Positions 18,920-59,188 of a stretch of 64,000 nucleotides of DNA are shown piece after piece. Numbering within the stretch: the stretch's first letter is position 1; every line of letters begins with the position of its first letter. The notes under the pieces were generated by a model. That model saw nothing but the letters and a program-made list of their open reading frames with translations, did not search any database and was not told where the DNA came from. Source of the stretch: an uncultured delta proteobacterium (GTDB lineage: Bacteria; Myxococcota_A; Polyangia; Polyangiales; Polyangiaceae); the NCBI GenBank assembly GCA_963716725.1, contig CAVQUB010000005.1, forward strand, positions 1 through 64,000, read 5' to 3'. The position numbers and the translations under genes are program-made.

Positions 18920-19130
18920 CGCTGGGTGACGTTCGCCGAGCACGACGAGCCTGGGACGACCCTTGGAAGTACCCGGGGGGGTAAGTCCCAGAAGTGGGAG
19001 GAGGTGGTCGAGGCACTCACGACGGACACTCCCAATGAATCGTTCACAGAAAGCGTTCGCCTTCGTCGCCCGCACAGGCGTTTTCAACACCCTCGTGCCG
19101 ACGCCGCGCGCGACGCGGTCGAACTTTCGG
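18920..19130 (-). pseudogene. rve/integrase-core transposase remnant carrying a nested 54-nt insertion
   Basis: VLKTPVRA.KANAFCERFIGSVRRECLDHL...VLGERH. Confidence 0.7.
18945..18998 (+). repeat. 27-nt mini-element, type A nested inside type A (54 nt)
   Basis: ACGAGCCTGGG[ACGACCCTTGGAAGTACCCGGGGGGGT]AAGTCCCAGAAGTGGG. Confidence 0.8.
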
Positions 19131-19410
19131 TCGCGTTGGTTGATCGAGGAGTATTTCAAGGCTCTCAAAACTGGCTGCGACATCGAGAAGCGTCAACTCG
19201 AGAGCTGCAGCACGCTCCTCGTGGCGCTCGGTGTCTTCGTGCCTATCGCGTGGGGTCTGCTCCGCTTGCGTGCGCTCTCCAGAACGGCGCCCGACACCCC
19301 GGCAAATCGAGTCCCCACTCCAACGCAGCTCGACCTGCTTCGGCGGCACCCCAAGGCAAAGATGTCTTCGACCGCGAGCGTGCGCGAAGCGCTGCTCGCA
19401 GTCGCCCCAA
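19130..19410 (+). pseudogene. IS4-family transposase C-terminal remnant
   Basis: RSRWLIEEYFKALKTGC.IEKRQLES, homologous to the C-terminus of 32545-33954. Confidence 0.75.
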
Positions 19411-19463
19411 GCAGCCCAATCGACAGCGGAACCCCGGCTTTTGGCCGTGATACTTTCCGGGTC

Positions 19464-19916
19464 ATGGGTAGACTTGGGCTGGCTCTCCTCGGCATCCTCG
19501 CTCTTGGCTGTACGACGCCACCCCAGGTGCAGATTGCACCAATGGTTTCGGAGGCGCGGGCGAACCAACTGAGTGCGATCGCCCACTACAAAGACGAACG
19601 ATTGGAGGTCACCGGGGTCGTCGTTATTGCCGGCGTTCGCAACGTAGATCGATTCGTCGGCAGCCCGGGGTACGGGAGTTGGACCGTTTCACGCGAGAAC
19701 GTTCAGCACCCATACCTGGAGCTGAGCGATCCCGCAGATGCAACGGGGACCGCTCGGCTCGTCTGCTACTTCCAGCCGAGCATGCTCGAGGAAATTGCCC
19801 CATACACCGCGGGCAGGGCGGTTACGGTCGTGGGGAAGTTTCAGGAATTCACGCCGGGCAGCATGTCCGTCGTCTTGAACTCGTGCCGGCTGCGCGACGG
19901 CGAGTCAGCTCATTGA
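19464..19916 (+). CDS. Putative OB-fold lipoprotein
   Basis: Lipobox ALGC; AN...A...YKD.RLEVTGVV...CYF...G..VTVVG.......V.L.SC pattern. Confidence 0.65.
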   Translation: MGRLGLALLGILALGCTTPPQVQIAPMVSEARANQLSAIAHYKDERLEVTGVVVIAGVRNVDRFVGSPGYGSWTVSRENVQHPYLELSDPADATGTARLVCYFQPSMLEEIAPYTAGRAVTVVGKFQEFTPGSMSVVLNSCRLRDGESAH

Positions 19917-20091
19917 TGTGCGCGTGCCGGCTGGATGATGGCGATGCCCGCCAGCTGCTCGATGGGCGCCACAACGGCGCAGGCACTGCGCGCGGCGTGA
20001 TGCGCCTCGGGCCGCGCGCCTCCGTCTGGCCGGGGGCGATGGCCATCACGGCGGCGCCGGCCGATGCGACGCCGCCGTCGGGACGCCGTGG

Positions 20092-20420
20092 TCAGTCGAA
20101 GCGCACCACGCTCGGTGCTGCTGGTTGCGGCGACTGCGAGGGCAGTGCGAATTCCCGGTCGACATCCTCGCTTGGAATTTCGAGCAAATACATGAGAAAG
20201 AGACTGATCTCTCGCAGTCGTGCAACCGCGCCATCCCACGCTCGTTCGAAGCTTCCAGGCATTGCCGGGACGATCGTCGCGAGATTCGCGCTGATCGGGG
20301 CCCGTGTGTGGTCCAGGGTGGCTAGGCACGTGCTGATCAGATGGTAGCCGGCCTCGACTGTCCGGCGAAGTGCCTCGCTTTGCTCTTCCGTCTCGTACGC
20401 AGCGACGAAGACGTTGATCT
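20092..20420 (-). pseudogene. 5'-truncated hypothetical gene cut by the ISCR relic
   Basis: Open frame NVFVAAYETEEQSEALRR...VVRFD* with no clear start, abutting the transposase relic. Confidence 0.35.
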
Positions 20421-20423
20421 CCA

Positions 20424-21763
20424 GCGATCAACGTCCGCCCCTTCGGGCATCGCGAAGCGCGTCACTGCCACGCGCTCGTGCTCGACGGCGTGTACGTGCA
20501 TCAAGACGACGACCCCCGCGCTCCGCTCGAGTTCCTCGAGCTCGACGCGCCTTCCCACGCGGACATCGCCGAGGTGGCGGCGCGCACCGCGGCGCGCATT
20601 GAGAAGATCCTGCGTGAGCACGGCCGAAGCCTTGACCCCGAGCGCGACGACGGCACCCCGCCCGAGCTCGCCCTCGACGACCCTGGGGAATCCTCGACGG
20701 GGGACGAGCCCGGGCTCGCCGCCTGCTACGCCGCCGCGGCGCGAGGCGTCTCCGTCAGCGGCGAACGCGCCGGAAAGCTGCCCCTGCGGCTGATCACCTC
20801 GCCGGAGTCGACCGCGCGCCCACGCGCCGCTGGCGCCACCGACGAGCCCATCGCCGAGGTGCGCGGCATCAACATCCACGCCGCCCAAGCCATCGACGGC
20901 CGCGATCGCCGTCGCGTGGAGCGAATCTGTCAGTACGACCCTTGGAAGTCCCCGACGGGGGACATCACGCGCCCCCCGGTCGCGCAGGACCGCCTCGAGC
21001 GCCGCGCTGACGGCAAGCTCGAACTCAGCTTCAAGCGTGCTTGGCGTGACGACCCTTGGAAGTCCCCGACGGGGGGCGGCACACGCGCGCTGGTCTTCGA
21101 GCCCGCCGACCTCATCCCGCGCCTCGTCGCCGCGGTGCCACCACCTCGCTGGCATTTGTTGCGGTACTTCGGCGTGCTCTCCCTCTTCAGGGACTTCCAA
21201 GGGTCGTCGAGCCACTCGTCGCGACGGCGCCTCGTCGTGCCCACACCGCCGGCGGACGCGACCGCGAACAAGCCTCCGCCAGCCCGCGGCGATCAGCTCG
21301 AGCTACTTGGCGAGAAGGACGACGCGCCGGTGCAGCGCAAACGATGGGCATGGATGCTGGCCATTGTCCCCGCTGCTCCGGTCCAATGCGACGCGCTTCG
21401 CGATACTCGCAGGAGTGCTGGGCCGAGGTCGCAACGACCCGGGCCGCCATCACGCGCTTGCTCTCCGAGCACGACCCTGGGAAGTCCCTGAAGAGGGCCG
21501 GTCTCGGGGCTCGAGCGCCGCCGCCTCAGCACGCGAGCCTCCGCGTGCCCGAGCAGCTCGTGTTGGGGTTCGGGGAAGGGTGAGGCTTCGTCGCGGGACT
21601 CGCCAAGGCGGTGCTCCATGCTCGGTGGCGCCTTCTGCCTCGCAGTGACGGTCCGCAGCGGCAATCAGTGCTCAGCCAGCCGCCCAGACCTGCCTCTCGA
21701 CCTCCAACCGACACGCGCGTACTCTTCGACTCGGTGGGTTTTGGCAGATGGAATTTCCTACGC
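20424..21763 (+). mobile_element. IS91/ISCR-family transposase 3' relic with seven 27-nt insertions and an oriIS-like end
   Basis: Paralogue of 10129-11308, including the HUH motif (HCHALVLDGVY). Insertions at 20436-20462, 20677-20703, 20935-20961, 21049-21075, 21181-21207, 21391-21417, 21471-21497. End motif GCAGATGGAATTTCCTACGC. Confidence 0.85.
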
Positions 21764-21808
21764 GCAGGGAGAACGCGAGCCAGACCGCGCTACCCTGACC
21801 CCTGACCC

Positions 21809-22669
21809 ATGGACCACTTCGTTGCCTACCACAGCGTCGAACTCATGGGCCACGACTACAGCCCTGAGGACCAGTTCGACTATCGCAGCCGAAAACCAGA
21901 ACCGTTCCTCCGCGCCTCGCTCGGGGCTCTGGTCTGGCTCATCGTTGGTAGCCGCGGGACGAAACGGACGCAGTATCGTCTCGCCGGGGTCTACACGCCA
22001 ACGTCCGTGCGACAAGGTGCTGACGGCCAGATCGTCGAAGGCTGGGGAACGCCGTTGCGTCCCCCCCCGGTTCTGAGCAATTTGCCATGGTTTTCTGGAT
22101 TTCTGCGCGCCCAGGCGAACTTTAGTCTCGGCTTCAACCGGTTGACGGACGCGTTTGCCATTCAAGCGTTGAGCCAATTGGTGGCTGACTCGGAGCGCGC
22201 GCCGTTCGACGACGCCTCGCGCCTTGGGAGCCCAGAACTCGCGTTCGATCCGGAGAACTTTGTCGATGCCCGCGATCGCGTCATGACAACCATCGTCCGA
22301 CGCCGGGGTCAGCCTGGCTTTCGGGCCGCGCTGCTGCAGGCCTACGGTTCGACGTGTGCCTTCTCGGGATGTGCTGTCGAAGATGTCTTGGATGCCGCGC
22401 ACATCGTGCCGTATCGAGGCGTTGAGACGAACCACGTCCAGAATGGGCTGCTGCTGCGGACCGATCTGCACGCGCTGTTTGATCTGGGGCTTCTTGCCGT
22501 TGACGCTGGCACAATGGGGATTCTCGTTTCCCCGGCGCTCGAGGCGTCCGAATACGCGCAATTCGTGGACCGCTCGCTTCGCGTGCCGGCGGAAACAGAT
22601 CGGGCGCCTTCGGCAGCAGCGCTTGAACATCATCGCGTGAAGACCGGATTGACTCCACGTTGCAAGTGA
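21809..22669 (+). CDS. HNH endonuclease, putative restriction/defence protein
   Basis: RRGQPGFRAALL.AYG..CAFSG...LDAAHIVPY...NGLLLRTDLHALFDLG. Confidence 0.85.
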   Translation: MDHFVAYHSVELMGHDYSPEDQFDYRSRKPEPFLRASLGALVWLIVGSRGTKRTQYRLAGVYTPTSVRQGADGQIVEGWGTPLRPPPVLSNLPWFSGFLRAQANFSLGFNRLTDAFAIQALSQLVADSERAPFDDASRLGSPELAFDPENFVDARDRVMTTIVRRRGQPGFRAALLQAYGSTCAFSGCAVEDVLDAAHIVPYRGVETNHVQNGLLLRTDLHALFDLGLLAVDAGTMGILVSPALEASEYAQFVDRSLRVPAETDRAPSAAALEHHRVKTGLTPRCK

Positions 22670-22810
22670 CGAGCCTTTCGCCTACGCGCGGGTCGCGCAG
22701 CTGAACGCTGACGGTTTGGAGGGAGTCAGTGTCCTGCCCGATCCCTTCGGCCCACCCCCACCCGTCAGCCCCCGCCCGCCCCTCACCCAATCCCCAGATT
22801 CCTCCGCTCG

Positions 22811-22882
22811 GGTTGCCCCCCCTCGCCTCACTGCGCTCGGCGGTCCCCCCCTTAATCGCGCTGCGCGCGATTGGGGGGACGC
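22811..22882. repeat. Compact member of the E1/E2 structured-element family (E3)
   Basis: GGTTGCCCCCC-T-CGCC-TCAC-TGC-GCTC-GGCG-GTCCCCCC...GGGGGGAC. Confidence 0.6.
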
Positions 22883-23538: not shown

Positions 23539-23540
23539 GA

Positions 23541-23846
23541 CTACTTGTCCTTCAGCGAGATCAGCAGGTAGCCGGATTCGTCCGTCGTGAACTTCACGTA
23601 GAGGATCCGGGCCTCGAACGGCAGGTGGTACACGTCCTGCCAGATGCGGTGGTCTCCAATCGAGGTCATCGACTTGTAGAAGTGGGCACGCTCGACGGTC
23701 TGAACGAGGTCCACGATCCCGGCGTCGGAGAGCCCAAGGTCGAGCGTTGCGAACGTCAAGCTGGACTCGGTGAGCCGGAGGCCGTCCACCGTGGAGAAGG
23801 TAGCCTTGATCGAGACGAGGTCGTAGTGGGGACGCCTCTTCTCCAT
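23541..23846 (-). CDS. mqsR: MqsR-family mRNA interferase toxin
   Basis: MEKRRPHYDL..IK...FYKSMTS..DHRIWQDVYH...YVKF...LISLKDK. Confidence 0.9.
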   Translation of the reverse strand: MEKRRPHYDLVSIKATFSTVDGLRLTESSLTFATLDLGLSDAGIVDLVQTVERAHFYKSMTSIGDHRIWQDVYHLPFEARILYVKFTTDESGYLLISLKDK

Positions 23847-24376
23847 TGCGACCTGTGGAGCATGGCACCTCTAAGGAGCCACGTCAAGAGCAGCCGATCA
23901 CTCCGTTCGGCGTCGTTGAATGGCCAGAAAGCCTACCGGAACAACTTGGAGAGCGCCGAGCGGCGCACGGAGACGAAGGGGGCCCCGTCCGGCGGGGCGA
24001 TAGGTACCAAGCTGGTTGTCGCCCGGTCCCTCGGCCGGCACGTACACCAAGCTCGTCATCCGCTTTCGTGGCCCGTTCTGCTACCTCGATGCTCATCGGA
24101 AGGGTGAGGACTACCATTCCAGCTCTTCTTGCTGCTGCTGGGGCCAGTGAAGTCCAGCAGCTCGTCAGCGAGCACGGGGCGGTGCCGGTGATCGTGATCG
24201 ACGAGGATGGTGTGGCAGCGGTGTCGTTCTGCCAGGTCGGACCGAGGTTCGATGCCAGCATGACGAATCTCTCCGAGCGACGCCGCTGGAGCGCCCCCAA
24301 CGCTGAAGAAGCCGAACACGGCTGTGATGTCCGTGACCTTCGACGACTCGACCAGGAAGGAGTAATCTTGAACCCG

Positions 24377-25440: not shown

Positions 25441-25516
25441 GGGGTGGTAGCTCAGCTGGGAGAGCGCCTGGATGGCATCCAGGAGGTCTGGGGTTCGATT
25501 CCCCACGGCTCCACCA
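25441..25516 (+). tRNA. tRNA-Ala(GGC)
   Basis: Cloverleaf with GGC anticodon, G3:U70 pair, TTCGA T-loop and encoded CCA; one G-G mismatch in the acceptor stem. Confidence 0.9.
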
Positions 25517-25952
25517 ATGCAATGAATTCGAACCCCCCTCCGCAACTTGCAGGAGGTTGAGGCTCTTGAGCTTGCAGGTGCCAGGCGCTTCCGAGACCGA
25601 CCCGTCGGGCGGCTTCGCAACGGGCGCAGCGCCCACCCGCCGATAGCGGACATGGTGGATCGGGCCCGGCAGCGGGCGACTGCCGACGTTCTCAAGGTTG
25701 CGCGCGCAGATGGCGTTCGCGTCGGCATGAGCGCTCTTCAAGTCGGTCTTCACGTGGGTGCCGAGTCCGCGCGCGGTGCTGCGCATGGCCGATGCAACGC
25801 AGGAAGATGCTCAGGCGCCCCTCAAGCCGTCAACACCGTGCGGAGTTGCCCTGTAAACTGGGCTCTGCACCCACCACCGTTCGCCGCGCCCGCCACTGAG
25901 CGCGCCCGGCACCCAGCTGGCCGACATCGACGGGGACGGCGCGCTCGACCTG

Positions 25953-28900
25953 GTGCTGAAGAGCGGGCTCGCCGAGTTCCGATTCTTCCCTGGGAAGTCG
26001 GCGACCAGCTTCGGCGCCAAGGTCCAGATCCCCACGGTTCCGAACGTCGACTTCGACGACCCGAACGTGCAGCTCGCGGATCTGGACGGCGACCGCCGCG
26101 CAGACGCGGTGATCTCGGCGGCGAGCGGGTGGGCCGTGGCCTACAACCTGGGCGGAAGCGACTTCGCCGCGCCCGCGAAGCTGGGCGTGATCGACGCGAA
26201 GCAAACGCTCCACTTCGCCGATGGCCACACCTCGCTCTGCGACGTCAACGGCGATCGCGTCGAGGACGTCTGCTACTTGATCCCGGGTTCGCTCGCCTAC
26301 TGGCTCGGACGCGGTCGGGGCGTCTTCGAGCCCGCGGCGTCGGGAAGCGGCGTGCCCACGTTCGAGGCCTCGAGCCCTTGGGAGCTCCGCGACCTGAACG
26401 GCGACGGCTGGGTCGATCTCGTGCACGTCGGCGTGGGCCAGGTGCGCTTCGCCCTCGCCGTGGCGCCGGGCCAGTTCGGCCCCGAGCGCAGCATCGGTGG
26501 CGTCCCTCAGAAACTCCCGAGCACGGTTGTACGCTTCGCCGACATGAACGCTTCCGGCACTACCGACGTCGTGTGGGTCGACGTGACCGGAGCGCCGAGC
26601 GCCGCCTGGCGCTACCTCGAACTCTTCCCAAACGGTCGCGCCGGCCTACTGCGCAAGATCGACAACGGCTTCGGCGGCACAACCACCATCGCGTACGGCA
26701 CCGCCGCCCAGGACGCCGCCGCCGCCCGCGCCGCCGGCAAGCCTTGGGACACACGGATCAACGTCGCGCTGCCCGTGGTGAAGGGCGTTCGGTTCGACAG
26801 CGGGCTCTCGGATCCTGCCCAGACGACGGAGTACGTCTACCAGGACGGCTCCTACGACGTCGCCGCACGCACCTTCGCCGGGTTCGGGGGCGGCGAAGAG
26901 ACCGTCGTCGGCGACTCGAGCACGCCGACTTTGATCACCAGCAGCCGCTTCGACGTCGGGCTCGTGCACCGCGTGCTGCGCGGTGCGGTGCTCAGCGTCG
27001 AGACCCGAAGCGAGACGGGGAAACTCTTCACGCGTGTGGAGAACCAGCACGCTGTCTTGCCGGTGGCCAAGGGTCTCGACGGCCGCGCCATCGAGTACGC
27101 CTACCGCTCGAGCGAGGCGAAGCAGATCGCGGAGGGCGTCGACCCCGCGCTCGCGCGGCACACGCTCGCGGAGTGGGAGCACGACGAGTGGGGGAACGAG
27201 ATCGCCCATCGTGACTTCGGCGAGGTGGTCGCCGGTGACGTGCTGGCGGGCAACGACGAGCGCATCACGCTGGCGACCTACGCTCAAGACACGGCGAACT
27301 GGGTCCTCGGGCGCCCCGCAACCCGCGAGGTGCAGAGCGCCGCGGGCAAGCGTTTCTCGCTCGTCCGGACGTACTACGACGGCAAGGCCTTCGAGGGGCT
27401 CTCGCTGGGAAAAGTGATGCGCGGTGACGCCACCCGCATCGAGCAATGGGCCGGTCCGGAGAAGGATCGGTTCGTCCTCACCACCGCAAACGCGCACGAC
27501 GCCCACGGCAACGTGACCGAGAGCCGTGACGCGGCCGCCGGTGCCCGGCGCTTCGCGTGGGATCCGGTCGACCACACGTCGCTGCTCGGCGAGACGCTCG
27601 TGCTCGAGGGCCGCGAGCTCGAGGCCACCACCCAGGTGCACCGGCCGAGCGGCAAGCCGCTGAGCGTGACCGGATTCGACGGGCAGAAGACCCTCTTGGC
27701 GTACGACGCGCTCGGCCGACTGACGGCCATCGCGCGGCCGGGCGACACTCTGGAAGCGCCGACCTTGGCGTACGAGTACCTGCTGAGCGCGCCGCTGTCG
27801 CGCATCGTCACTCGTTCGCGAATCTGGAGCGGAAAGGACGAAGTCGAGATCCAGGAGAGCCTGATCGATTCGCGCGGCAAGAGCCGCGGCCGGATGTTGC
27901 GTGACGGCGCGGAGCGTTGGGTGCTGGACGGGGTTACGCTCTTCGATGCGCGCGGCAACGCCCGACGCGACGTTTTACCTCGCTTCCTGACCCTGGCGGA
28001 GCACGACTCGCCGCCGCTCCTCGACGAAGCCCCTGGCACCCAGCAGCGACGCGACGCCATCGGGCGAGTCATCGAGCGGCGCCTGCCCAGCGGCATCCAG
28101 AGTCGGATCGAATACATGCCCCTCGGCAAACGGACGTGGGACGGGGCGGCGAACGATCCCGCCTCGCCCTACGAGCACACCCCCGCGGTGGAGGCGATGG
28201 ATGGGCTGGGCCGGCTTCTGTCCATCTCGCACACGCTCGAAGGCAAGCTCCTGACGGAGAGCTACGAGTACGACGCGGCCGACAACCTCTTGTCGAAGGT
28301 CGATCCCGAGGGACACGTGTCGCGCTTCGCCTACGACGGCCGCGGCCTTCGGATCGCCATCGACGACCCGGACGCCGGCAAGCACACGCTCGCATACGAC
28401 GACGCCGGCAACCTGGTCGAGCACCGACGGCCCGACGGCACCATCGGTCGCGACCGCTTCGACCGCTTGGGGCGCAAGCTGAGCGAGGACTGGGACGGCG
28501 ACGGCGAGCCCGAGGTCGAGCTCGAGTACGACGAGCACCCGGACCGCCCCGGGGACCCGAGCGCGCGCGGCCGGCTGGTGATCACGCGGGACGCGAGCGG
28601 CTCGATCACGCGGAGCTACGACCCGCGCGGGAACGTGGTGCGCCTGCACCAGATCGTCGAGGGCGAGAGCTACGTGTCCGAGATGCGCTACGACGCGCAA
28701 GACCGGCTCTATCTCCATGGTTACCCTGACGGTTCGTCGCTCCGGCTCCACCGCAACGAGCGCGGGCAAATCTCCCGTTACGGCAGAGCAGTGGAGATCG
28801 CCCTCGACGCCGACGGGCAGGAGACGCAACGCACGTTCAACACCGGCGTCACCCAGCTGTTCGGCTACGACGACGATCGCCTGCCGCGCGCGAGCCGAGT

Positions 28901-30671
28901 CAAGGCGCCCGACGGCGGCGTCCTGCAGGACCTCGAATGGGCGCGCGACGGCGCAGGCAACGTGCTGGAGGTGAAGGATCGCCGCGCCAGCATCGACTCC
29001 GCGACGGACCGCGGCGAGGTCTACGTCTACGACAACCTCTACCGCTTGCGCAGCGCGTCGGGCAGCTGGGGCGAGACCTCGTGGAGCTACTCGCCGAGCG
29101 GCAACCTGGTCCACAAGAAGAGCACGCTACCGGACGAGAACGCCGGTGACCTCGGATACGGCAAGTCCGCCGGCCCCCACGCCATGACCCGGTACCGCGG
29201 GCGGACCCTGGCCTACGACCCGATGGGTCGGATCATCGACGACGGCGTGCGCAAGTACCGTTGGGACGCCTTCAGCAACCTGATCGCCGTCGAGACCAAC
29301 CAGGCCTCGGTCGAGAGCACGTTCGGGCAAGACCACGAGCGTCGGGTCAAAGTCGAGCGCGGCGCGGACGGTCAAGAGCACCGCACTCACTTCCTCTCGC
29401 CGTGGAGCGAGGTGCGCGACGGGGAACTCGTGCGCTTCATCGTGCACGAGGGTCAGCGCATCGCGCGGCTCGGCCCCGGCACCGGAAGGCCGGCGGCGCT
29501 CGGACCACTGCCGGAAAACGGCGGTCCCACCTCGCCCTGGCCGTTCTTCTTCATCGCGCTCGTGCCGGCCATCGAGCTCCTGCGCGGGCAGCGCCGCTGG
29601 GCCAGTGCGCACGCGCTCGCGGCGGTGGCGCTCCTCGGCTGCAGCGGGGACGACGCAAGCCGGAACGCCTCGCCCTCCGAGGGTACCGTGCTCACGCTGG
29701 GCGCGGACGACGCCCTGCTCTTCCATGATGGCCTCGGGTCGCTGACGGAGGTGGTGCGCGCGACGGGCGAGCGGCTCGCGAGCGTGGCCGTGTATCCGTA
29801 CGGGCGCACGCGCTACGACGACGCGAGCGAGACCGACAAGTACACGGGGGTGCCCCGCGACGGCAGCGTCGAGGTCGATCACATGCAGGCGCGCTGGTAC
29901 GTGCCGGAGCTCGGCGTCTGGAGCAGCGTCGATCCGCTGAACTGGCTCGACCCGACCAAGAAGGCGGGTTTGGCGTTCGCGACGGGAAACCCGTACGCTT
30001 ACGCGGGCGGGCAGCCGACGACGCTGACGGACCGGAGTGGGGAGTGTGGGCCGTGCGTGTTTGTCGTCGTGGGTCTCGCGGGCCTCGCGTCGGGCATCGC
30101 TGCCAACTCCGAATACAATCGACAGATCAAGGCCCGTGAGCCCTCGAGCCTTCCGAAGATGATCGCGGCCAGCGTGATCGCTGGCGAGGGTTCTCTGCTG
30201 AGCAGCCAAATCCCAGTGGCTGGTGTGTTCGGCGAGTCGTTCGCGGGTGCAATGACTCTCGGGGCGATCCGAGGCTCCGCAGTGTCAGCAGGAACTTACG
30301 GTGCAACGGTCGCCGCCACCGGGCAGCCCTTCGACAACGAGTACTTCTCGAAGACCGTCGCGTGGGGCGGGGTTTCTGGCGCCTTCAGCGGCATGCTGTC
30401 CCAGGGAAAAGCGAACTGGGACACGTCGGGCTGGACGGCCGCCCAGGTCGAATCCGGCCACAAGCAGCACCAGATCGCGTCGAGCTTGATCTCCGGGCAG
30501 ACCAGTACGCTCAAGTCCACCGTGTTCCTACCCTCACCCAAGCCCAGCCCGAGCTCGGCGCCCAAGCCCGCGGTGCAGTCTTGGGTGTACTCCTACTCGG
30601 TTTCGAGAAGCGTCGAGGGAACGAACACCGCCGAGTGGACCGACAACATGGTGAAGGAAGTGCAGCGGTAA
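25953..30671 (+). CDS. TcdB-like/Rhs (YD-repeat) toxin with FG-GAP repeats, probably 5'-truncated
   Basis: DLDGD/DVNGD repeats, GLLRKIDNGFGG, YD repeats, Rhs core end ARWYVPELGVWSSVDP...NPYAYAGGQP..LTDRSG, then a ~205-aa hydrophobic C-terminal domain. The frame opens mid-repeat after a stop near 25854. Confidence 0.85.
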   Translation: MLKSGLAEFRFFPGKSATSFGAKVQIPTVPNVDFDDPNVQLADLDGDRRADAVISAASGWAVAYNLGGSDFAAPAKLGVIDAKQTLHFADGHTSLCDVNGDRVEDVCYLIPGSLAYWLGRGRGVFEPAASGSGVPTFEASSPWELRDLNGDGWVDLVHVGVGQVRFALAVAPGQFGPERSIGGVPQKLPSTVVRFADMNASGTTDVVWVDVTGAPSAAWRYLELFPNGRAGLLRKIDNGFGGTTTIAYGTAAQDAAAARAAGKPWDTRINVALPVVKGVRFDSGLSDPAQTTEYVYQDGSYDVAARTFAGFGGGEETVVGDSSTPTLITSSRFDVGLVHRVLRGAVLSVETRSETGKLFTRVENQHAVLPVAKGLDGRAIEYAYRSSEAKQIAEGVDPALARHTLAEWEHDEWGNEIAHRDFGEVVAGDVLAGNDERITLATYAQDTANWVLGRPATREVQSAAGKRFSLVRTYYDGKAFEGLSLGKVMRGDATRIEQWAGPEKDRFVLTTANAHDAHGNVTESRDAAAGARRFAWDPVDHTSLLGETLVLEGRELEATTQVHRPSGKPLSVTGFDGQKTLLAYDALGRLTAIARPGDTLEAPTLAYEYLLSAPLSRIVTRSRIWSGKDEVEIQESLIDSRGKSRGRMLRDGAERWVLDGVTLFDARGNARRDVLPRFLTLAEHDSPPLLDEAPGTQQRRDAIGRVIERRLPSGIQSRIEYMPLGKRTWDGAANDPASPYEHTPAVEAMDGLGRLLSISHTLEGKLLTESYEYDAADNLLSKVDPEGHVSRFAYDGRGLRIAIDDPDAGKHTLAYDDAGNLVEHRRPDGTIGRDRFDRLGRKLSEDWDGDGEPEVELEYDEHPDRPGDPSARGRLVITRDASGSITRSYDPRGNVVRLHQIVEGESYVSEMRYDAQDRLYLHGYPDGSSLRLHRNERGQISRYGRAVEIALDADGQETQRTFNTGVTQLFGYDDDRLPRASRVKAPDGGVLQDLEWARDGAGNVLEVKDRRASIDSATDRGEVYVYDNLYRLRSASGSWGETSWSYSPSGNLVHKKSTLPDENAGDLGYGKSAGPHAMTRYRGRTLAYDPMGRIIDDGVRKYRWDAFSNLIAVETNQASVESTFGQDHERRVKVERGADGQEHRTHFLSPWSEVRDGELVRFIVHEGQRIARLGPGTGRPAALGPLPENGGPTSPWPFFFIALVPAIELLRGQRRWASAHALAAVALLGCSGDDASRNASPSEGTVLTLGADDALLFHDGLGSLTEVVRATGERLASVAVYPYGRTRYDDASETDKYTGVPRDGSVEVDHMQARWYVPELGVWSSVDPLNWLDPTKKAGLAFATGNPYAYAGGQPTTLTDRSGECGPCVFVVVGLAGLASGIAANSEYNRQIKAREPSSLPKMIAASVIAGEGSLLSSQIPVAGVFGESFAGAMTLGAIRGSAVSAGTYGATVAATGQPFDNEYFSKTVAWGGVSGAFSGMLSQGKANWDTSGWTAAQVESGHKQHQIASSLISGQTSTLKSTVFLPSPKPSPSSAPKPAVQSWVYSYSVSRSVEGTNTAEWTDNMVKEVQR

Positions 30672-31514: not shown

Positions 31515-34500
31515 GCATAGGTGAAATGAACGGGGGGTGGTTGGTGAGCTGGCGCGTCTGAACGTCGAATCGGCTGCTGTTGAAGGAGCGAGCAGCGCGC
31601 GGAGCAGTCTCGGCAGTCTCGATTCGCCTCGCGGCGCCATCCTTTTCACCGCTGACACCACCATCGTTCCGGTCTCGGAGAATACCAGGCACACGACCGC
31701 CCTGCACGTCGCGAGCATCGCAATGCATCACTCACCGAACATATCCAGCTGCGGGAGCGAGTCGCTGTCGAGCTCGCCGAACCTCCGGCGCAGCGCCGGG
31801 CTCGTGAAGAACGGCGGTCTTCGCGCTGGCGCGATGGGAGGAGGCTCGGCATCCTCTCCGAGCCTGCGCAGGAAGCGCGTCACGGTCTGGGCCGCAGTGA
31901 CCATCCCCCCGCCGGGGATGCCCCTCCGGGCACTTTCAAGGATCGTCACGAAGCGCGTCGCGCGGAGCAGCATGGGTGCGCCGCACTTGGCACATTTCTC
32001 GCTGTCGATTTTGAAAGTGCGCTTGAGGAGCTCACGCCACGGGCGATAAGTCGAGCGATGCGTCGCCGGTCGTGCGGCGGTGGCGGTCTCATCGTGAATG
32101 TGGGCAGGAGCACGCGCAGGGTTCGTGGTGGCACAGTCGTGCACCGGTGGCGGAGGTGGAGCGACTCTGGTTCTCCAGCGATGAGCTGCAGCGAGCACCC
32201 CCGAGTCCCCCGTCGGGGACTTCCCAGGGTCGTAATGGACGCGATGGGCGCGTGGGGCAGGCACCGAGGCGGCTAGCCGGAGAAGAAACGACAACGGATC
32301 GAGATCGATGGCCGTGGTGCCGTCGGAGAACGGTCGCTTGAGCAGGATGCGACGCGCTTCGCGACGATCCTTGAAAGTGCCCGGAGGGGCATCCCCGAAG
32401 GGGGGCACGAGCCCACTTCCGAGTCGACGCACTCGGTCTTGCGCGAGCGGCGGGCGTAGGACGTACTTGCAGAGGGTTTCGCGAGCACGCGCGTCCTCCC
32501 CCGTCGGGGACTTCCCAGGAGCCGCTTCGGAACACCCGGAGGGCTCATGATTGATCGGATCCCATCTGGGACCGGGCAGCTCGGAAGCCGATCTCGTAGT
32601 CGAGGAGCTTCTGGTAGCCCCGTCCTAACGTTTGCCACCCGGGTGCGCCGTTGTTCTTCAGATGCCCGCCGAGTCGCGCGACAGCGAATAGCGCTTGCTC
32701 AATGGTCTGCGGGACGGCCGGGAGGCGGAGCTTGAACTTTATGAGGAGCAACTGGGGCTCACTCAGGATCGTTGTTGCCGGTTGCTCGGGTGCGACGCGG
32801 GCTAACGAGCGCATGAGCAACAGGCGCCAGGCGATGGGCAGGAACACGGCGAGCGCGTTGCTCAGTGCCTGATACGACTCGAGCTGTCGTTTCTCGAGAG
32901 AACACCCTTGCTTGAGTGCCTTGAAGAACTCTTCGATCACCCACCGACTGCGGTAACAGTCCACGACGGTCGCGAGTTCGGCGACGGTGTCAATGGGTTC
33001 GGTAGTGAGCAGCACCCACTCGACCGACGGCTCGCCTTCTGGTGGTTGGAGTTCCCAGACTCGAACCACGTTGAGTTCGATGCTGCGCGTCTCATGTCGA
33101 GTGTTGCGGGGGCGCAGCACAGTCAAACGTTTGCCTGCCACGGCGACCTCCGCGCTCCGGGCGTTGCGAGACGGGTGCTCTTTTGCAGCATGCGCGCGAC
33201 TGCTCGGTTTCCTCGATGACACCGAGATCGTGCGAAAAAACTGCGGTTCGAGCGTTGAGATTGCACTGCGCAAGCAGATGCCTATTTCCTCAGTTACTCG
33301 GTCGTGAGCCGAACGGATGACGTAGCGCGCACCGAGTTCCTGCGCCTTCGCCAGGACCTCGAAAATGTCCGCTTCGCGGTCCATCACGTGAATGAGCGCG
33401 CTGCCGGGGCAGCGTGCATGGACGGCCTCGAGCATGGCCGGCCAGCGCAGTGATTCGCGCTCGGGGTCTCTCCGACTGACAGACCGGCGGCGCCCGCGTC
33501 CACCCTTGTGTACGAGGCGGACGTGTCGCTGTAGACCCAGAACTCCGAGTGGCACTCGCTCCTCGCCGGGAAGCACGGCCAGCGCCACGTGTGCGAGAAA
33601 CCCCTGGCTGCCGCCGGACGTGACGCCCAACCCAGCTCGCCGACTGGCGCCGCCGAGCGATACTTCGGTCGTATCGTGCGCGACGATACACAGGCCAGCG
33701 GAACTCACACGCTCCACCGTCGCCGACAGGTGCGGGTCAAGGATCTGCTCCGCGTCGAACTGCTCGTTGCGCAGGAATCGGTAGACTCCCTCAAGCTCGG
33801 ACGGAGTGTCGACAGCCTGCGGAAACCCAACACCGGGCGCCGCCATCAGTTTCTCAGCGAGCCAACCGAGCCTGTCACTGCGCCGCTTATCGCCGAGCTG
33901 AGAGCCCTCGAACTCGTCCGAAATCGACCGCCCTAACCATTCTGTTGCCGGCATTTCTCCCGTAGATCACACGCGCCGTCCGCTCGCAATGAGATGTGTT
34001 TGATCATGAGCCGGAGGGGTGGTCCTCGCCGGGAGCCGTGGTGGCCGCATGCACCGAGAAGCCGTCCTCGCGGGCGGCCAGACCGGAAACGGAGAGCTCG
34101 CCGCGATCGGGCAGTGCGATGGCGGGACGCTGCCGATGCTCGGGCCCCGCCGGAGGGTTGCCGGTGACGGCGGCGGTGGCGAGTGCGGCCAGCTCGGGCT
34201 CGCGCTCGGCGAAACCGTCGTCGGTGAGGCAGAGCTCGTTGTCTCGTTCGACGACGCCGCGACGCGCGAGAAAGTCCAAGATGCGCACGCGGGCGGCGTG
34301 CAAGAGATCTGCGACGTCGGAGTTGGAGAGCGCGGGGAGCTGGTGGAAGACGAGGCTCCCGTCATCGGTCTCGAGGAAGACTCCGTCCAACGCGAGCAGG
34401 TGCAGGTGGGGGTTGAGTCGGAGGTCGGAATTCACGCGTTGCACAGCGGTGATCGCGCCGCTCTGGCCTTTGCCCACGCGGTAGAGGTCGCGCATCGTGC

Positions 34501-54613: not shown

Positions 54614-56026
54614 CTAACTGTCTGCCAGTCGTTCGGCGCGGACGCGCGCCGCCGCGCTGCGCGCTTGCCGCACGCAGTCCGGGATGCCGACCCCGTCGTA
54701 GGCTGCGCCGATGACGTACAGCCCCGGCAGGCTGCGGAGACGTGCTTCGATCCGCGCGACGCGCGCGCCGTGCCCGACGATGGGCTGCGGGTTCGAGTCG
54801 ATGTAGCGGAAGATGCGCGTCAGCGACGCGGTCCCGAGTCGGCCCATCAGCTGCTCGAGCGCGCGCTTTGCGATGTCCACGAGGTCTTCGTCACTCGTGT
54901 TCACGACGTCGACCTTGGCGCGGGCGCCGCCCAGGAACGCGCGCACCAAGACGTGGTCCTCCGGCGCTCGGCCGTCCCACTTGCTCGAGACCCAGGTGCC
55001 CGCGATGACCTCGGCCTCGCCCTTGGGAGCTACGAAGCCGACGCCGTCGAGCGGCCGCTCGAGCCCGGCCCGTGGAAAGGCGAAGAAGACAGTCGCCGTG
55101 GAGATGTAGGGGATGGCCGCGAGCTCCGCGGCGAGCTGTGCGTCGGGCACCATCTTCGCCGTCGCGTGGGCCGGCGAAGCGAAGATGACGGCGTCGGCCT
55201 CCAGGCTTTCGTCGCCATCGAGCAATACGCGATACGAGTCGCCGACGGGCTCGACCCGCTCGACGCTGCGACCACACTCGAGCGTGTCGGGGGGGAGACG
55301 CTGCACCAGCGCGTCGACCAGATCGCCCATGCCGCCCTTGAGCGACATGAACGGGCTCGGCGGCCCCGAACTCTTGGTCGCGGCCCCGCTCTGCTTCGAT
55401 CGCGCGAGCTGCAGCGCGAGCAGACCCTTGGCGAGGCTGCGGTGCTTCTTCTCGACCTCGACCAGCTGCGGAAAGGTGGAGAGGATCGAGAGCTCGCCGA
55501 TGTCGCCGGCGTAAATGCCGCCCAAGAGCGGCGCGGCCAGGCGCCGGGCCGCCTCGCGTCCGAAGCGCCGCGCGATGAAGTCCTCGATGCTCTCGTCGCT
55601 GCTCGTGGGACGACGTGGCAACACCAGATCGCCGAGCATGCGCAGCTTGCCCGGGAAGCTCACCAGCGGCGTCGAGAGCATGGGCCCGATCTGGGTTGGG
55701 ATCGCCAGCGCGAGACCCCCGGGCATGGGCTCGAGCCGACCCTGGTGCACCATGTAGACCTTCTTGGCTTCCGGACGCGGCACGATCAGATCGGCGCCGA
55801 GCCCGAGCTCGCGGCACAGCTCTGCGCCCTCGCGCTTGGTGCTCAAGAACGAGTCGGGGCCGCCATCCAGCAAGAAACCATCGCAACGAACGGTCTCGAT
55901 GTTCCCGCCCACGCGGTCACGTCGCTCGATCAGCGTGACGCGCGCGCGCGGTTCGCCATTCGTCAGCACGTACGCGGCGGTCAGGCCCGTGATGCCCGCG
56001 CCGACGACCACCACATGGCGGGTCAT
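54614..56026 (-). CDS. hemG: Protoporphyrinogen/coproporphyrinogen oxidase (HemY/HemG type)
   Basis: VVVGAGITGL, DGGPDSF, GIYAGD..LS, GVGIPDC. Confidence 0.9.
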   Translation of the reverse strand: MTRHVVVVGAGITGLTAAYVLTNGEPRARVTLIERRDRVGGNIETVRCDGFLLDGGPDSFLSTKREGAELCRELGLGADLIVPRPEAKKVYMVHQGRLEPMPGGLALAIPTQIGPMLSTPLVSFPGKLRMLGDLVLPRRPTSSDESIEDFIARRFGREAARRLAAPLLGGIYAGDIGELSILSTFPQLVEVEKKHRSLAKGLLALQLARSKQSGAATKSSGPPSPFMSLKGGMGDLVDALVQRLPPDTLECGRSVERVEPVGDSYRVLLDGDESLEADAVIFASPAHATAKMVPDAQLAAELAAIPYISTATVFFAFPRAGLERPLDGVGFVAPKGEAEVIAGTWVSSKWDGRAPEDHVLVRAFLGGARAKVDVVNTSDEDLVDIAKRALEQLMGRLGTASLTRIFRYIDSNPQPIVGHGARVARIEARLRSLPGLYVIGAAYDGVGIPDCVRQARSAAARVRAERLADS

Positions 56027-57051
56027 CGGCGAGAGCGCTCGTGCACGACGTCGGCGACGAAGCGCACGCTGTCGGGCGAGGTCTCCGGCAAGATCCCGTG
56101 ACCGAGATTGAAGATGTGCCCCGGCGCCGGACCCGCGGCATCGAGCACCTCGACCACGCGTTTTTCGAGCAGCGGGCGGGGCGCGAAGAGCAGCAGCGGA
56201 TCCAGGTTGCCTTGCACTGCCACGTCGTTGCCCAAGCGAGCGCGCGCGGCGCCCAGCGGCGTGCGCCAGTCGACGCCGATGACGGTGCCGCCGGCCTCCT
56301 TCTGGAGCTCGAGCAGGGTCGCGGTGCCGGTCCCGAAATGGATGACCGGGACGCCGGTCTTGGCGACGTCCTGCAAGATGTGCTGCACGTGCGGCAGGAT
56401 GAACTCGCGGTAGTCGGTGGGGGACAGCGCTCCGATCCACGAGTCGAAGAGCTGAATGGCCTGGGCGCCGGCGGTCACCTGGGCGCGCAGATAGAGACGC
56501 ACGACCTCCGAGAGCTTCTTCATCAGCGTGTTCCAGAGCTCGGGCTCCGAATACATCATCTGCTTGGTCTTGGCGTAGTGCGCGCTCTTGCCGCCCTCGA
56601 CCAGGTAGCTGGCCAGCGTGAAGGGCGCGCCCGCAAATCCGATCAGCGGGGTCTTGCCGTCGAGCTCGGCCCGGATCAGGCGGATCGCCGCCAGCACGTG
56701 GCCCAGACTCTCTTCCGGATCGATCACTCGCAGCGCATCGATGTCGGCAGCCGTGCGTACCGGGTGGTCGAAGACCGGACCTTCACCCGCCGCGAACTCG
56801 AAGGGCGAGCCCATGGGCTCGAGCGGCAGCAAGATGTCCGCGAACAGAATCGCTGCGTCCACGGCCGCCGCGTGCACCGGCTGCAACGTGACTTCGCAAG
56901 CGAGCTCGGGCTGCCGGCAGATCTCGAGCAGCGTGTGCTTCTCGCGGATCTTGCGGTACTCGGCCATGTAGCGGCCAGCCTGCCGCATGAACCAAACTGG
57001 GGTCGCGTCGACCGGCTCGCGCCGGCAAGCGCGTAGGAATCGATCCCACAT
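56023..57051 (-). CDS. hemE: Uroporphyrinogen decarboxylase
   Basis: PVWFMRQAGRY, IGFAGAPFTLASY, QGNLDP, IFNLGHGI. Confidence 0.96.
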   Translation of the reverse strand: MWDRFLRACRREPVDATPVWFMRQAGRYMAEYRKIREKHTLLEICRQPELACEVTLQPVHAAAVDAAILFADILLPLEPMGSPFEFAAGEGPVFDHPVRTAADIDALRVIDPEESLGHVLAAIRLIRAELDGKTPLIGFAGAPFTLASYLVEGGKSAHYAKTKQMMYSEPELWNTLMKKLSEVVRLYLRAQVTAGAQAIQLFDSWIGALSPTDYREFILPHVQHILQDVAKTGVPVIHFGTGTATLLELQKEAGGTVIGVDWRTPLGAARARLGNDVAVQGNLDPLLLFAPRPLLEKRVVEVLDAAGPAPGHIFNLGHGILPETSPDSVRFVADVVHERSRR

Positions 57052-57070
57052 CGTGTAGATCCTTCGTCCG

Positions 57071-57658
57071 CTAGCGCTTCTCGTTCTGAGCGGCGGCGGG
57101 CAAGATGGGCTCGTGCGGGGCTTTCTCGCCCTTCTGAGCGCGGTCCTTCATGTCGTACTTGGAGGGGCACTTGGCCATGATCTGATTGGCTTCGAAGTAG
57201 CCCTCGGCGTGGAGCTTTCCTTCGGCGGTGACCTCGACGTCCATGTCGGGCACGTCGCGGAAGGTGTCCGGGACCACGCACTGGGCGTAGCGCACGTCGA
57301 TGGTCTTCTCGTTCTTGACCATGGTGAAGCGGTATTCGCAGGGCTCGTCGCGCCGCTTCAGCGTGCCCTTGAGCAGATTGCCGGCCACGCGCACGTTCCT
57401 GTTGCCGAGCTTCTCGCGTTCGGCCACCAGCTCGTCGACACCCTTGGAATAGACGGCCGAGTCTTCGAAGCTGGTGAGGACCAGCGCGAGGATGCCGCCG
57501 CCCATCACGAGCAGCGCCGCGACCAAGCCGAGGTTCTGCATCTTGCGCTGGGTCGGTGGCTGTTCGGCCGCCGGGGCGGCGACCGGCCGATCGGAGTCGG
57601 GCGCGCCGTCCTCGGAGGTCTGCACCGCTTCCGCCAGCTCTTCGTCGAGCTTGCTCAT
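57071..57658 (-). CDS. ccmE: Cytochrome c maturation heme chaperone CcmE (CxxxY type)
   Basis: TM helix, PDTFRD, EG, MAKCPSKY. Confidence 0.85.
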   Translation of the reverse strand: MSKLDEELAEAVQTSEDGAPDSDRPVAAPAAEQPPTQRKMQNLGLVAALLVMGGGILALVLTSFEDSAVYSKGVDELVAEREKLGNRNVRVAGNLLKGTLKRRDEPCEYRFTMVKNEKTIDVRYAQCVVPDTFRDVPDMDVEVTAEGKLHAEGYFEANQIMAKCPSKYDMKDRAQKGEKAPHEPILPAAAQNEKR

Positions 57659-57723
57659 TGAATGCAAAGCGTAGTCGCGTGGTCCCTGTCGGTCCACTGG
57701 CTGGGCATGCCATCGAAGAAAGC

Positions 57724-58212
57724 TCAGTCGATTTTCGGCAGACGGGGCCGGCGGCGGAGTCCCGCGCGGGCGCCCAGCGCGGCGCCGAGCGCAGCCAGCG
57801 CCCCCAAAACGCCCAGCGTTACCGCCGCCACTGGCCAGGGACGCAGTGCGCCGCTCGACACGGTGAAGAGCCAGGCGCCCAAGGCCGCCAAGGTGCACCC
57901 GAGCACAGCCTCGCGCGCCCCCGCGCGCCCCCCGTGACGTCCCACGACGGCGCCGGTGATGCTCGTCGCAGCCACGAGGGACGCGAGCGCCGGAACCACC
58001 AACATCAGCGCGGCCGCTCCCCGCGCCGCGCCGCCGCCGGCGGCGTCGCTCGCCCAACGCGAGAGCAGCGCCCGACCCAGCGCGAGCGCCAGCATGCCGA
58101 GCGGGACCCAGAGCGTGAGGGTGAGCGCGGCTGCGATCGCCACCCACTGCGACGGTGGCCGGGTCTCGCCTTCGTCGTCCGGCGACTGAATCACGGGCAG
58201 GCGTCGCACCAT
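57724..58212 (-). CDS. Hypothetical membrane protein
   Basis: Four hydrophobic segments. Confidence 0.55.
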   Translation of the reverse strand: MVRRLPVIQSPDDEGETRPPSQWVAIAAALTLTLWVPLGMLALALGRALLSRWASDAAGGGAARGAAALMLVVPALASLVAATSITGAVVGRHGGRAGAREAVLGCTLAALGAWLFTVSSGALRPWPVAAVTLGVLGALAALGAALGARAGLRRRPRLPKID

Positions 58213-58299
58213 CCGAGTCGATCCTTAGCGCGGAATCCGAAAAACCACACAACCCGAGCCCGGCCCACGCCGAAAGGGGTGTAGCCTCACGGCCGTCCG

Positions 58300-59188
58300 A
58301 TGTTCGCGCGCTGGTTCTGCTCCTGCTCCGCTGTCGTGCTCGTCGTGACGCGCTTCGCGACGATCCTGGAAAGTCCCCGGAGGGGGATACCCGACGGGGT
58401 GGGGCAGGCATGGGCGGCCGAATCGGGGATTCGATCCCGAGTCACCGGCCGAGTCGACGCCTGCGCCTGCGCCTGCGCCCGCGACGACGGCGGATCCGCC
58501 GTACGCAGCCTGGCAAGGCTCGGGTCACGCCCCACCCGACGGCTACTCACCCGGATCGATTCCGGCGCCAGCGGTCGGCGCACCCATCTACGCGCGTCGA
58601 ACGGTCGAGCTCATCCCCGCGCTTGGCGTCGCCCTGGCGAACTGTCGCGCCGGCTCCCGCTCCGACAACCGCTGTGATGGCGTCGGCGGCGGCGGCATCG
58701 TCGGGTTCACCGGGCTCTGGCGAGTCACGCCCTACTTCGCGTGGGGTGGCGGCTTCGAGGTCGCGGCGTTCCGCAATCGACCCTCCGAGGAGAGTGAGCT
58801 CTCCGACGCGAGCGCTGCGGCCGTGTGGCTCGGGCTGATCGGTCGGGTGTATTTCAACGACGAAGGCGCCCTCGATCCCTACGTGCAACTCGCCATCGGC
58901 GTCGGTGCGCTCGGCACGCAGGCGACCGATCCGGCGGACGTCACCTGGGAGGAGACCGGCGCCGGACCCGCGGCACAAATTGGCGGGGGCCTCGACTTCC
59001 ACCTTTCGCGATCGCTTCGGCTCGGTCCGTCGCTGACCTACACACGGGTGTTCGTGGACAAGATCCGACGCTGTCAGGCCTCGGGCGGCGGCAAGTGCGA
59101 GGACGTGTCGAAGGACGACGACGGTCACTTGAACTCACACCTGACGCTGGCCGCTCGCCTGACCATCACTCTGGGGGGGGAGCACTGA
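58300..59188 (+). CDS. Secreted/outer-membrane beta-barrel-like protein with a 54-nt insertion in its signal peptide and a +1 frameshift near 58428
   Basis: MFARWFCSCSAVVLVV[18-aa insert]GQAWAAESG, continuing in the next frame as FDPESPAES...DPYVQLAIG...LTITLGGEH*. Confidence 0.6.
58348..58401 (+). repeat. 27-nt mini-element, type A nested inside type B (54 nt)
   Basis: ACGCGCTTCGCG[ACGATCCTGGAAAGTCCCCGGAGGGGG]ATACCCGACGGGGTG; same composite as 31905-31958 and 32352-32405. Confidence 0.85.

Follow-up and report, generated by a model that had tools for sequence, protein, structure and literature searches.

Rickettsia palindromic elements (RPEs), reportedly described by Ogata et al. in 2000, are said to be selfish palindromic DNA that lies in frame within functional genes and adds surface peptides to their products. 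They measure about 100-150 bp, occur in one genus and comprise families RPE-1 to RPE-8. In fungal mitochondria, mobile GC clusters, double-hairpin elements and byps are G+C hairpins of some tens of nucleotides (nt) that invade coding regions, vary in length and in some cases need translational bypass; no transposase is known for any of them. Repetitive extragenic palindromic (REP)-like sequences that are translated inside genes are in print as GTAG and CGTC REPs; CGTC REPs span five phyla, have no dedicated transposase and, in the CGTC-1 scheme, consist of a 4-nt tag, an 8-bp stem, a 4-nt loop, an 8-bp stem and a 3-nt tail, or 27 nt in all (Di Nocera, De Gregorio & Rocco 2013, PMC3733652). Here we analyze a family of 27-nt hairpin units in the draft genome of an uncultured delta proteobacterium of the Polyangiaceae (assembly GCA_963716725.1; 7.89 Mb, 35 contigs, 68% G+C), starting from the window, by which we mean the first 64 kb of contig C5 (CAVQUB010000005.1, forward strand). 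Positions without a prefix are those of the window; C1, C4, C5 and so on are contigs of this home genome (G000), other G-numbers are other metagenome-assembled genomes (MAGs) or genomes, and L-numbers are extracted loci. When the sequence was read at every site, units of 27 or 54 nt were found at all 13 places listed in the original prediction. These units are a real dispersed family that has been inserted, and is sometimes missing, as whole units or pairs.

Two types can be told apart. In type A, a 15-nt arm, ACGACCCTKGGAAGT, leads into a G+C hairpin whose stem needs pairing rather than fixed letters; type B is a small CGCG hairpin (ACGCG-CTT-CGCGA) followed by a second hairpin like that of type A. 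With CGTC REPs (PMC3733652), the family shares short G+C hairpin repeats in open reading frames (ORFs) that are read as short peptides, the lack of any transposase found, and the 27-nt sum. The other strand of the unit runs CGTC...hairpin...TT-CCA, to be set beside the terminal CGTC tag and CCA tail of those REPs: the unit's 5' GACG is CGTC on that strand when a G precedes, and TT-CCA comes after the hairpin, at a spacing unlike the published scheme. Unlike the CGTC REPs described there, the units have stems of 4-6 bp starting with G/C, as against 8-9 bp starting with A/T (the 4-nt loop is shared, the published loop being 4-5 nt); they carry a conserved 15-nt arm, stand singly or in head-to-tail arrays with no head-to-head dimers, are intragenic at about 70% of single-copy loci, and recur with the same 26-nt pattern across phyla. 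Architecture thereby sets the family apart from CGTC REPs; its sequence may coincide with that of a listed family. Full-text literature searches found no description of this particular 27-nt family, and in that respect the proposal that it had not been described stands. To claim a wholly undescribed kind would be too strong, because REP-like palindromes translated inside genes already appear in the literature (PMC3733652).

With the REP and REPIN sequences served by REP-associated tyrosine transposases (RAYTs), the units have in common a short palindrome in the 20-40 nt range, a conserved motif beside the hairpin and copy numbers in the dozens; like them, they are also hit by an insertion sequence (IS), here of the IS4 family. 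They differ in having no GTAG at the 5' foot, no inverted doublets, no mainly extragenic location (27 of 39 single-copy loci lie in ORFs), no RAYT linkage and no strand bias. They resemble RPEs in their in-frame insertion into functional ORFs, here DinG-like helicase and FtsY-like genes; they are unlike RPEs as described in measuring 27 or 54 nt, forming arrays and occurring in several phyla. Unlike mini-elements derived from IS200/IS605 (PATE), whose two ends bear subterminal hairpins and which have a Y1 TnpA and a lagging-strand bias in orientation, type A folds as one hairpin and shows no orientation bias relative to GC skew, and unlike MITEs, miniature transposable elements with inverted repeats, the units have no terminal inverted repeats, with junction repeats of 0-7 nt in place of a fixed duplication. 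The fungal mitochondrial elements are organellar and of variable length, whereas the units here are strictly 3n in length and can be read through.

Evidence for insertion came from placing the flanks of each locus on the rest of the genome, which yielded 23 aligned pairs of filled and empty sites. The members of a pair differed by 27 nt in 14 cases, by 54 nt in seven and by other lengths (75 and 36 nt) in two. A nested 54-nt architecture at C1:94054 had an exact 54-nt empty site in a paralogue at C1:171882. Within the window, an IS91-family relic (20418-21488) has five filled sites, at each of which a clean IS91-family paralogue at 9850..11124 on the plus strand aligns without a unit. In an alignment of eight copies of this IS91 lineage, about 1.8 kb contain at least 10 distinct sites, occupied in both orientations and with nested presence and absence: three sites are common to four copies, two are common to two copies and several are private. 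One copy with six inserts keeps an open 599-aa frame (C12:54312-56108).

Comparison with orthologues, proposed in the original prediction as a check for empty sites, gave the same result in single-copy genes. A DinG-like helicase reads ...LALR-DALRDTRVG-GPHPGRV... in the home genome and ...LALR-GPHPGRV... in 6/6 same-genus orthologues, the DNA carrying a clean 27-nt type B insert. An FtsY-like gene has a unit in its linker that is absent from 3/3 orthologues found, in a stretch where the alignment is loose, and a RluB-like gene has one in a C-terminal tail that defies alignment. As had been proposed, the units preserve the frame in the DinG-like, FtsY-like and IS91 genes, where they are predicted to add 9 or 18 residues.

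Filled forms were also found outside this assembly, in independent metagenome contigs, which disposes of the concern that the inserts might be assembly products. Words of the stretch 20400-21600 were present in runs of 11 studies of groundwater, biofilters, wastewater and sediments. Public metagenome contigs from runs X1, X2 and X6 cover filled sites, and one from X14 covers the first 330 nt only. X2 and X6 each have, in addition, a contig without exactly 27 nt at 20676; the X2 contig (record 14) spans 368 nt with one other difference. The degenerate type A unit at 20677..20703 (plus strand) is therefore polymorphic in public metagenomes, and a paralogue on C16 likewise lacks the 27 nt at this place. 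Either the unit was gained very recently or it was lost precisely.

The anatomy of the units was examined genome-wide. With at most one mismatch, the type A core GACCCTKGGAAGT has six matches in the window against 0.13 expected, a number reached in 0/100 shuffles, and CCCCGACGGGG has four against 0.14 expected; the type B loop word CCCCGAAGGGG has one window match, which is within chance (6/100 shuffles). Among 111 core matches in the genome, 86 are directly followed by a perfect 4+4+4 hairpin. These hairpins fall into 13 stem/loop variants with compensatory stems (CCCT/AGGG 42, CCCC/GGGG 17, GCCC/GGGC 8, ACCC/GGGT 6, CCCA/TGGG 5, and others), and the stem reaches 6 bp when the flanking GT..AC is counted, around a loop of 4 nt. 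Fold energies of single units were no better than those of shuffles (z about -1.3 to +0.3), so support for the hairpin rests on the compensatory variants. As single-stranded DNA, type A forms one hairpin behind a 15-nt unpaired arm. The double-hairpin description given originally thus fits type B, which folds into two hairpins, and the 54-nt forms, which fold into two or three, but not type A. Some 54-nt forms consist of a B arm and an A-like arm with two hairpins (31905, 32352 and 58348); the others are an A unit nested in an A unit at TTGG^AAGT (18945, C1:94054 and C4:160929). The two consensus sequences indeed lack stop codons in all six frames, a property that is unremarkable given that 49% of random genomic 27-mers share it and that 8/86 units carry a stop in some frame.

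A motif-plus-hairpin scan returned 136 blocks; 105 were kept under the requirement for a hairpin of CCC/GGG type and 31 were dropped as chance. The genome thus holds about 105 loci, both single units and head-to-tail arrays with an exact period of 27. Arrays include one of 10 units at C4:157615 and one of seven at C5:287531, the latter antisense within a TPR gene. In a 3.5-kb multicopy element, six copies with flanks 99-100% identical contain 2, 2, 4, 5, 6 and 7 units, and arrays therefore change length fast. Copy number that varies between alleles, the defining feature of a minisatellite or variable-number tandem repeat, is a property of the arrays and not of the dispersed single insertions. 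In the 3.5-kb element the array, whose coding status is not clear, stands upstream of a 489-aa HNH/RuvA_C ORF, at a distance of 70-270 nt. The element itself, at C5:604755-608293 (L139) and in six other copies, comprises this ORF, which is of no clear family, and a split transposase of the IS1182 family.

Tandem arrays, alone among the units, gave an Rfam match to the guanidine-II riboswitch (mini-ykkC, RF01068), a pair of ACGR-loop hairpins that lies upstream of transporter genes. The match has 30.4 bits, where the gathering score is 32, and falls inside the mobile element (L139:787-937 and L140:874-916). We rejected this identity: the score is below the cut-off, the match is a by-product of ..AGGG-ACGA-CCCT.. 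unit junctions, and the window has no such match. The GGG-ACGA-CCC junction hairpins of arrays are a possible cause of false riboswitch calls in genomes of this kind. Searched against Rfam with an E limit of 0.1, 20 foreign loci that carry units gave no match.

At least one flank is repeated at 66/105 loci, compared with 45/400 random loci. The repeated hosts are IS91/ISCR, IS66, rve and HNH genes or their relics, and about 30/105 loci lie in IS91-type DNA. The other 39 loci are in single-copy DNA, and 27 of these fall in ORFs supported by codon-position G+C, a share close to the 72% that the same caller covers genome-wide. The single-copy intragenic units are 13 sense and 14 antisense and are spread along gene lengths; their hosts include a Ser/Thr kinase, an ArsA-like ATPase, a PMT_2 glycosyltransferase, and TPR, FG-GAP and RCC1 proteins. 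Sense type A units mostly read D-P-W-K-S-P-x-G (15 of about 21 distinct predicted peptides), probably through insertion after NAC codons (D, Y, H) and the rarity of A at third positions. Genes tolerate the units, which have 3n length, rarely contain stops and encode predicted loops rich in P, G, S, D and R. IS91 genes that contain units reach 32-35 bits on Y2_Tnp, and clean copies about 72 bits; units thus depress family-model scores and can mislead annotation.

The units are in turn targets. A 1467-bp IS of the IS4 family has seven full-length or near-full copies of 99.2-99.9% identity and one partial copy; by sequence identity they lie at window 32544-34010, on C4, and at C5:676878, C10:8849, C13:84022, C13:288501 and C24:287. 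At the copy in the window the flanks read CACCCGGAGGG-IS-CCGGAGGGGTGG, an 8-bp duplication. Of the 12 ends of this IS seen, 11 lie in a hairpin of the 27-nt family, and copies with both flanks available have a duplication of about 8 bp. The IS targets hairpins, much as REP-homing ISs do.

At the junctions of the units, alignments of filled and empty sites upheld the original observation of no terminal inverted repeats and no consistent target duplication: junction repeats run from 0 to 7 nt and no duplication of fixed length was found. The 27/54-nt gap is free to shift by 0-7 nt (mean 2.3; random windows, 0.96), and a junction repeat of at least 5 nt occurs in 4/18 events against 1.9% expected. 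The repeats match the unit's own 5' end (AC, GACGA and ACGACC, with GACGAC in G041), and 81/86 units are preceded and 49/86 followed by AC. These junctions look unlike staggered-cut duplication and resemble annealing or recombination at sites like the unit's end.

The distribution of the family is patchy: it reaches several phyla but few genomes in any of them. Among 40 relatives, the type A pattern was present in 5/6 other genomes of the genus, 1/18 from other genera of the family and 0/16 from other families of the order. A sample of the home phylum had 7/401 positive genomes, with counts of 86 (home genome), 29, 15, 8, 4, 2 and 1, and a reversed control pattern gave one match in all 401. 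Across phyla we used an exact pattern of 26 nt, of which about 20 bases are specified and for which about one chance match is expected in 596 Gb; it matched at least 106 stretches. Among the matches listed, 80 loci lie in 20 assemblies under six kinds of taxonomic label: 11 Myxococcales/Polyangiaceae/Kofleriaceae/Myxococcaceae/Deltaproteobacteria, four Fibrobacterota/Chitinivibrionales, two Natronospirales, and one each of Gammaproteobacteria, Bacillota and Phycisphaerales. The Fibrobacterota contigs are genuine, with 50-58% G+C, lengths up to 291 kb and one unit between ftsA and ftsZ. An IS91 locus labelled Polyangiaceae and the Phycisphaerales locus have identical sequences. Every foreign genome has its own dominant hairpin variant. 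The type B pattern, searched in five foreign genomes, occurred in G041 only, with two matches; types A and B therefore do not travel together. The exact pattern had no match in viral contigs, and a seven-unit array used as query had none in a plasmid collection. Outside Myxococcota-labelled records, in-frame use was indicated for single loci only, namely L061 (Natronospirales, with a YD-like motif) and L067 (Kofleriaceae), and the extra units looked at in G046 (Fibrobacterota) lie in other non-coding repeats and not in frame in genes.

In G041, a Myxococcales-labelled MAG, units have entered another repeat. A multicopy element of about 117 nt with 58 matches (loci L175-L204, e.g. L183:122-239) folds as a single long hairpin; of its 36 predicted pairs, 15 show compensatory changes. 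Rfam has no match for it, and it is a structured small RNA or else a MITE-like repeat. The unit is present in about 8-10 copies, where it interrupts an internal loop at GGCC^GACGAC^GCC, and missing from the majority, at least 16 of which were aligned. When hairpins are extruded or single-stranded, their loops may be favored as targets. Fibrobacterota MAGs hold two further repeat families, of about 170 nt and about 100 nt, which are intergenic between housekeeping genes such as ftsA/ftsZ (L038, L041, L048, L069, L074 and others; L226-L233); both carry the 27-nt unit at a hairpin tip, and neither has an Rfam match.

We tentatively favor the explanation that the units are selfish REP-like 27-nt modules, unit-length copies of which are joined by templated insertion or break capture, with ISs as vehicles; taken together with its observed part, this account falls somewhat short of probable. 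A unit-length copy would derive from a unit already in place, in many cases from a neighbor or a tandem array, and be joined into transiently single-stranded or broken DNA, where its GAC(GAC) end would anneal to a short matching target. The route would be templated insertion or break capture and not a RAYT-type transposase. Arrays would then lengthen and shorten by slippage, and unit-carrying ISs would move units between genomes. Copying appears to be often local because neighboring sites share hairpin variants: four IS91 sites share the CCCC-GACG-GGGG hairpin, which accounts for 14/86 units genome-wide. A bolder form of this account is that the 27-nt unit is a minimal self-propagating replicator without its own transposase, written into single-stranded loops or breaks by replication and repair through a few bases of end homology and crossing phyla as an IS passenger. 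We think this form unlikely; if true, no smaller mobile DNA that spreads horizontally would be known, and proteins would have in the unit a general route to 9-residue loops. Should the units be moving now, they would in any case rank among the smallest mobile DNA modules known, adding nine residues at a time without killing genes. Natural filled/empty pairs within the genome, within the genus and within public metagenomes make the questions raised here directly testable. They concern how transposase-less REP-like repeats spread (a point still open for CGTC REPs), which loops tolerate insertions, and how ISs ferry passengers between phyla.

Several points weigh against the repair explanation. 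No mover was found, and we infer the mechanism from the forms that copies and junctions take. Four of the 18 events have no junction homology, and type B sites share no common target motif. Strict unit length and constant phase at single-unit sites fit a site-specific enzyme at least as well. The unit at 20677 is a unique sequence variant in the assembly, so that either its donor is unseen or the unit was lost precisely to give the empty allele, a course that favors an excising enzyme. As to the reach of the family, gene calls are composition-based and not annotated, the Bacillota and Phycisphaerales labels may be binning errors, and the cross-phylum search fixed the arm, which makes arm conservation partly a matter of ascertainment.

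Owing to strict length and phase, an unrecognized dedicated enzyme ranks close behind the repair explanation as nearly as likely, although we regard it as somewhat unlikely in itself. Such a site-specific nuclease, recombinase or transposase would bind the 15-nt arm and hairpin, cut at GAC^GAC and move whole units, and arrays would form as the 3' GAC recreates the target. Constant unit length and phase, an arm conserved in sequence beside a stem conserved in structure only, and AC before 81/86 and after 49/86 units would all follow, as would the precise 27-nt absence in a near-identical copy and the patchy, horizontal-looking distribution. Targets, however, are not uniform, no gene in the home genome is flanked by inverted units, and the pattern is absent from the viral contigs and plasmids searched. 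Nor does a candidate accompany the units: the 489-aa HNH protein and the HNH_2 protein of the window were found in 0/5 foreign unit-bearing genomes, the search with the 489-aa protein being weak for want of a positive control.

That IS91/ISCR-family rolling-circle (HUH Y2) transposases move the units, mainly in cis and hence with saturation of their own genes, seems to us improbable. The idea would explain the density of units in IS91 DNA, with at least 10 sites in one IS91 gene lineage, a 599-aa ORF still open with six inserts and about 30/105 loci in IS91-type DNA. IS66, rve and HNH relics are invaded too, and because of this, tolerance in dispensable multicopy genes is a simpler reason for that density; units also stand in both orientations inside the gene. 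The IS91 target tetranucleotide is CTTG, and the TTGG variant of the type A arm contains it. PF04986 was present in 8/10 foreign unit-bearing genomes against 0/14 control genomes, but among relatives it does not discriminate, being found in 24/34 unit-negative and 6/7 unit-positive genomes, and it was not found in G019, G045 and G047 (2, 19 and 13 units), of which G045 and G047 are small assemblies. As a separate observation, partial IS91-family copies lie head to tail with a period of about 1180 nt at C13:110250-113800 and C8:415300-417000, maybe as a trace of rolling-circle or one-ended transposition.

The original prediction had suggested an HUH enzyme as mover, and we find it very doubtful that a Y1 enzyme of this class (a RAYT or IS200/IS605 TnpA) moves REP-like units as single-stranded DNA. 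In its favor, the units combine a hairpin and a conserved single-stranded arm, lack a fixed duplication and can be absent seamlessly, and the home genome has two Y1 genes, at 74 bits (an IS200-like match) and 31 bits (a weak REP_Tyr_transpos match). Neither gene has adjacent units, the nearest being more than 10 kb away, and PF01797 was found in 0/5 and 3/5 foreign unit-bearing genomes, that is 3/10, all MAGs in which absence is not proof. Neither a REPtron layout nor a GTAG tag nor an inverted doublet is present. Orientation showed no bias relative to GC skew (type A 6+/7- in positive-skew and 10+/11- in negative-skew regions) by a test that is a proxy of low power on a draft assembly, and unit orientation followed no trend with gene-strand bias. 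The suggested HUH/RAYT mover is thus not borne out. The weaker of the two matches belongs to a 476-aa ORF (C5:497987-501229, L002) in which a long region of His/Ser/Gln-Gly hexapeptide repeats accompanies a weak Y1/RAYT-like domain (31 bits on PF01797).

Finally, the notion that the units are immobile, either as ancestral coding repeats or minisatellites spread by host-gene duplication or as assembly or adapter artefacts, is barely credible despite the repeated DNA around 66/105 loci (45/400 at random) and arrays that behave as variable-number tandem repeats, since the artefact and duplication-only versions are refuted by clean lineage-specific inserts in single-copy conserved genes, by 39 loci in single-copy DNA, by units in all frames, on both strands and in non-coding repeats of other phyla, and by independent assemblies from 11 studies that hold units.

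The individual sites of the window illustrate these forms. The first, at 18945..18998 (plus strand), is a 54-nt composite recognized by its core match, in which a type A unit (18956-18982) is nested in a second, degenerate type A unit. On the minus strand the composite comes after a sub-threshold rve_3 match (18.3 bits against a cut-off of 26.5). A relationship of the surrounding ORF to the rve integrase at C1:93931 was rejected, as BLASTP gave no match between them; the sub-threshold rve_3 match remains. A type B unit at 20436..20462 (minus strand), which folds as two hairpins, stands at the start of the IS91-family relic. Farther along, and on the plus strand, a type A unit at 20935..20961 lies in the Y2 transposase domain, where KY-IT would become QY-DPWKSPTGD-IT; the site is empty in the clean IS91 paralogue (10570-10614) and filled also in IS91 genes of other MAGs (L090 and L110). 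Type A units follow at 21049..21075 (plus strand; predicted WRD-DPWKSPTGG-GT; empty at 10657-10701) and, in reverse orientation, at 21181..21207 (minus strand; predicted LFRDFQGSS; empty at 10760-10804). At 21391..21417 (plus strand) stands a type B unit with the variant second hairpin ACTC-GCAG-GAGT, where other IS91 copies read ...CCGATGCG-CTGGGCC without a unit. The type A unit at 21471..21497 (plus strand) is filled also at C10:8695 and empty at C13:92583, C12:56002 and 11018-11062.

A second IS91-family relic, whose ORF is a weak Y2_Tnp match, contains at 31905..31958 (minus strand) a 54-nt composite of a B arm, an A-like arm GATCCTTGAAAGT and two hairpins, with a 54-nt empty site at C35:6281-6312. 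A type A unit identified by sequence and core match lies at 32207..32233 (minus strand), and a composite with B arm, A-like arm and two hairpins, folding into three hairpins, at 32352..32405 (plus strand), with a 54-nt empty site at C35:5913-5944. The site listed as 32498/34026 is split because the 1467-bp IS4-family IS sits in the unit hairpin. A type A unit with a diverged arm and the left half of a B-like hairpin cut by the IS occupy 32498..32543 (minus strand), the IS, which is outside the 27-nt family, occupies 32544..34010 (minus strand; 473-aa ORF, 295.5 bits on NF033590), and the right half of the split hairpin is its other flank, at 34011..34026 (plus strand). The last site, 58348..58401 (plus strand), is a 54-nt composite in single-copy DNA, with no composition-supported ORF across it and overlapping ORFs that have no family match. 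The initial statement that all 13 sites lie inside ORFs or their relics is accordingly borne out in part, with ten sites in IS91-family relics, and is not borne out for 18945, which is beside a sub-threshold rve_3 match, or for 58348.

Outside the window, the commonest perfect hairpin of the genome is a 14-mer family around CTCCGCGCGTGCGGAG with 112 occurrences, which is probably a CRISPR repeat. In an Rfam scan of the window, two tRNAs alone reached the gathering score, and a tRNA gene lies at 25441-25513. Near the IS91 relics is a patch of mobile DNA with an HNH_2 endonuclease gene (21809-22669), an MqsR-like toxin gene (23544-23870) and a gene for a 1604-aa RHS-repeat protein with TcdB_toxin_midN (25857-30668).

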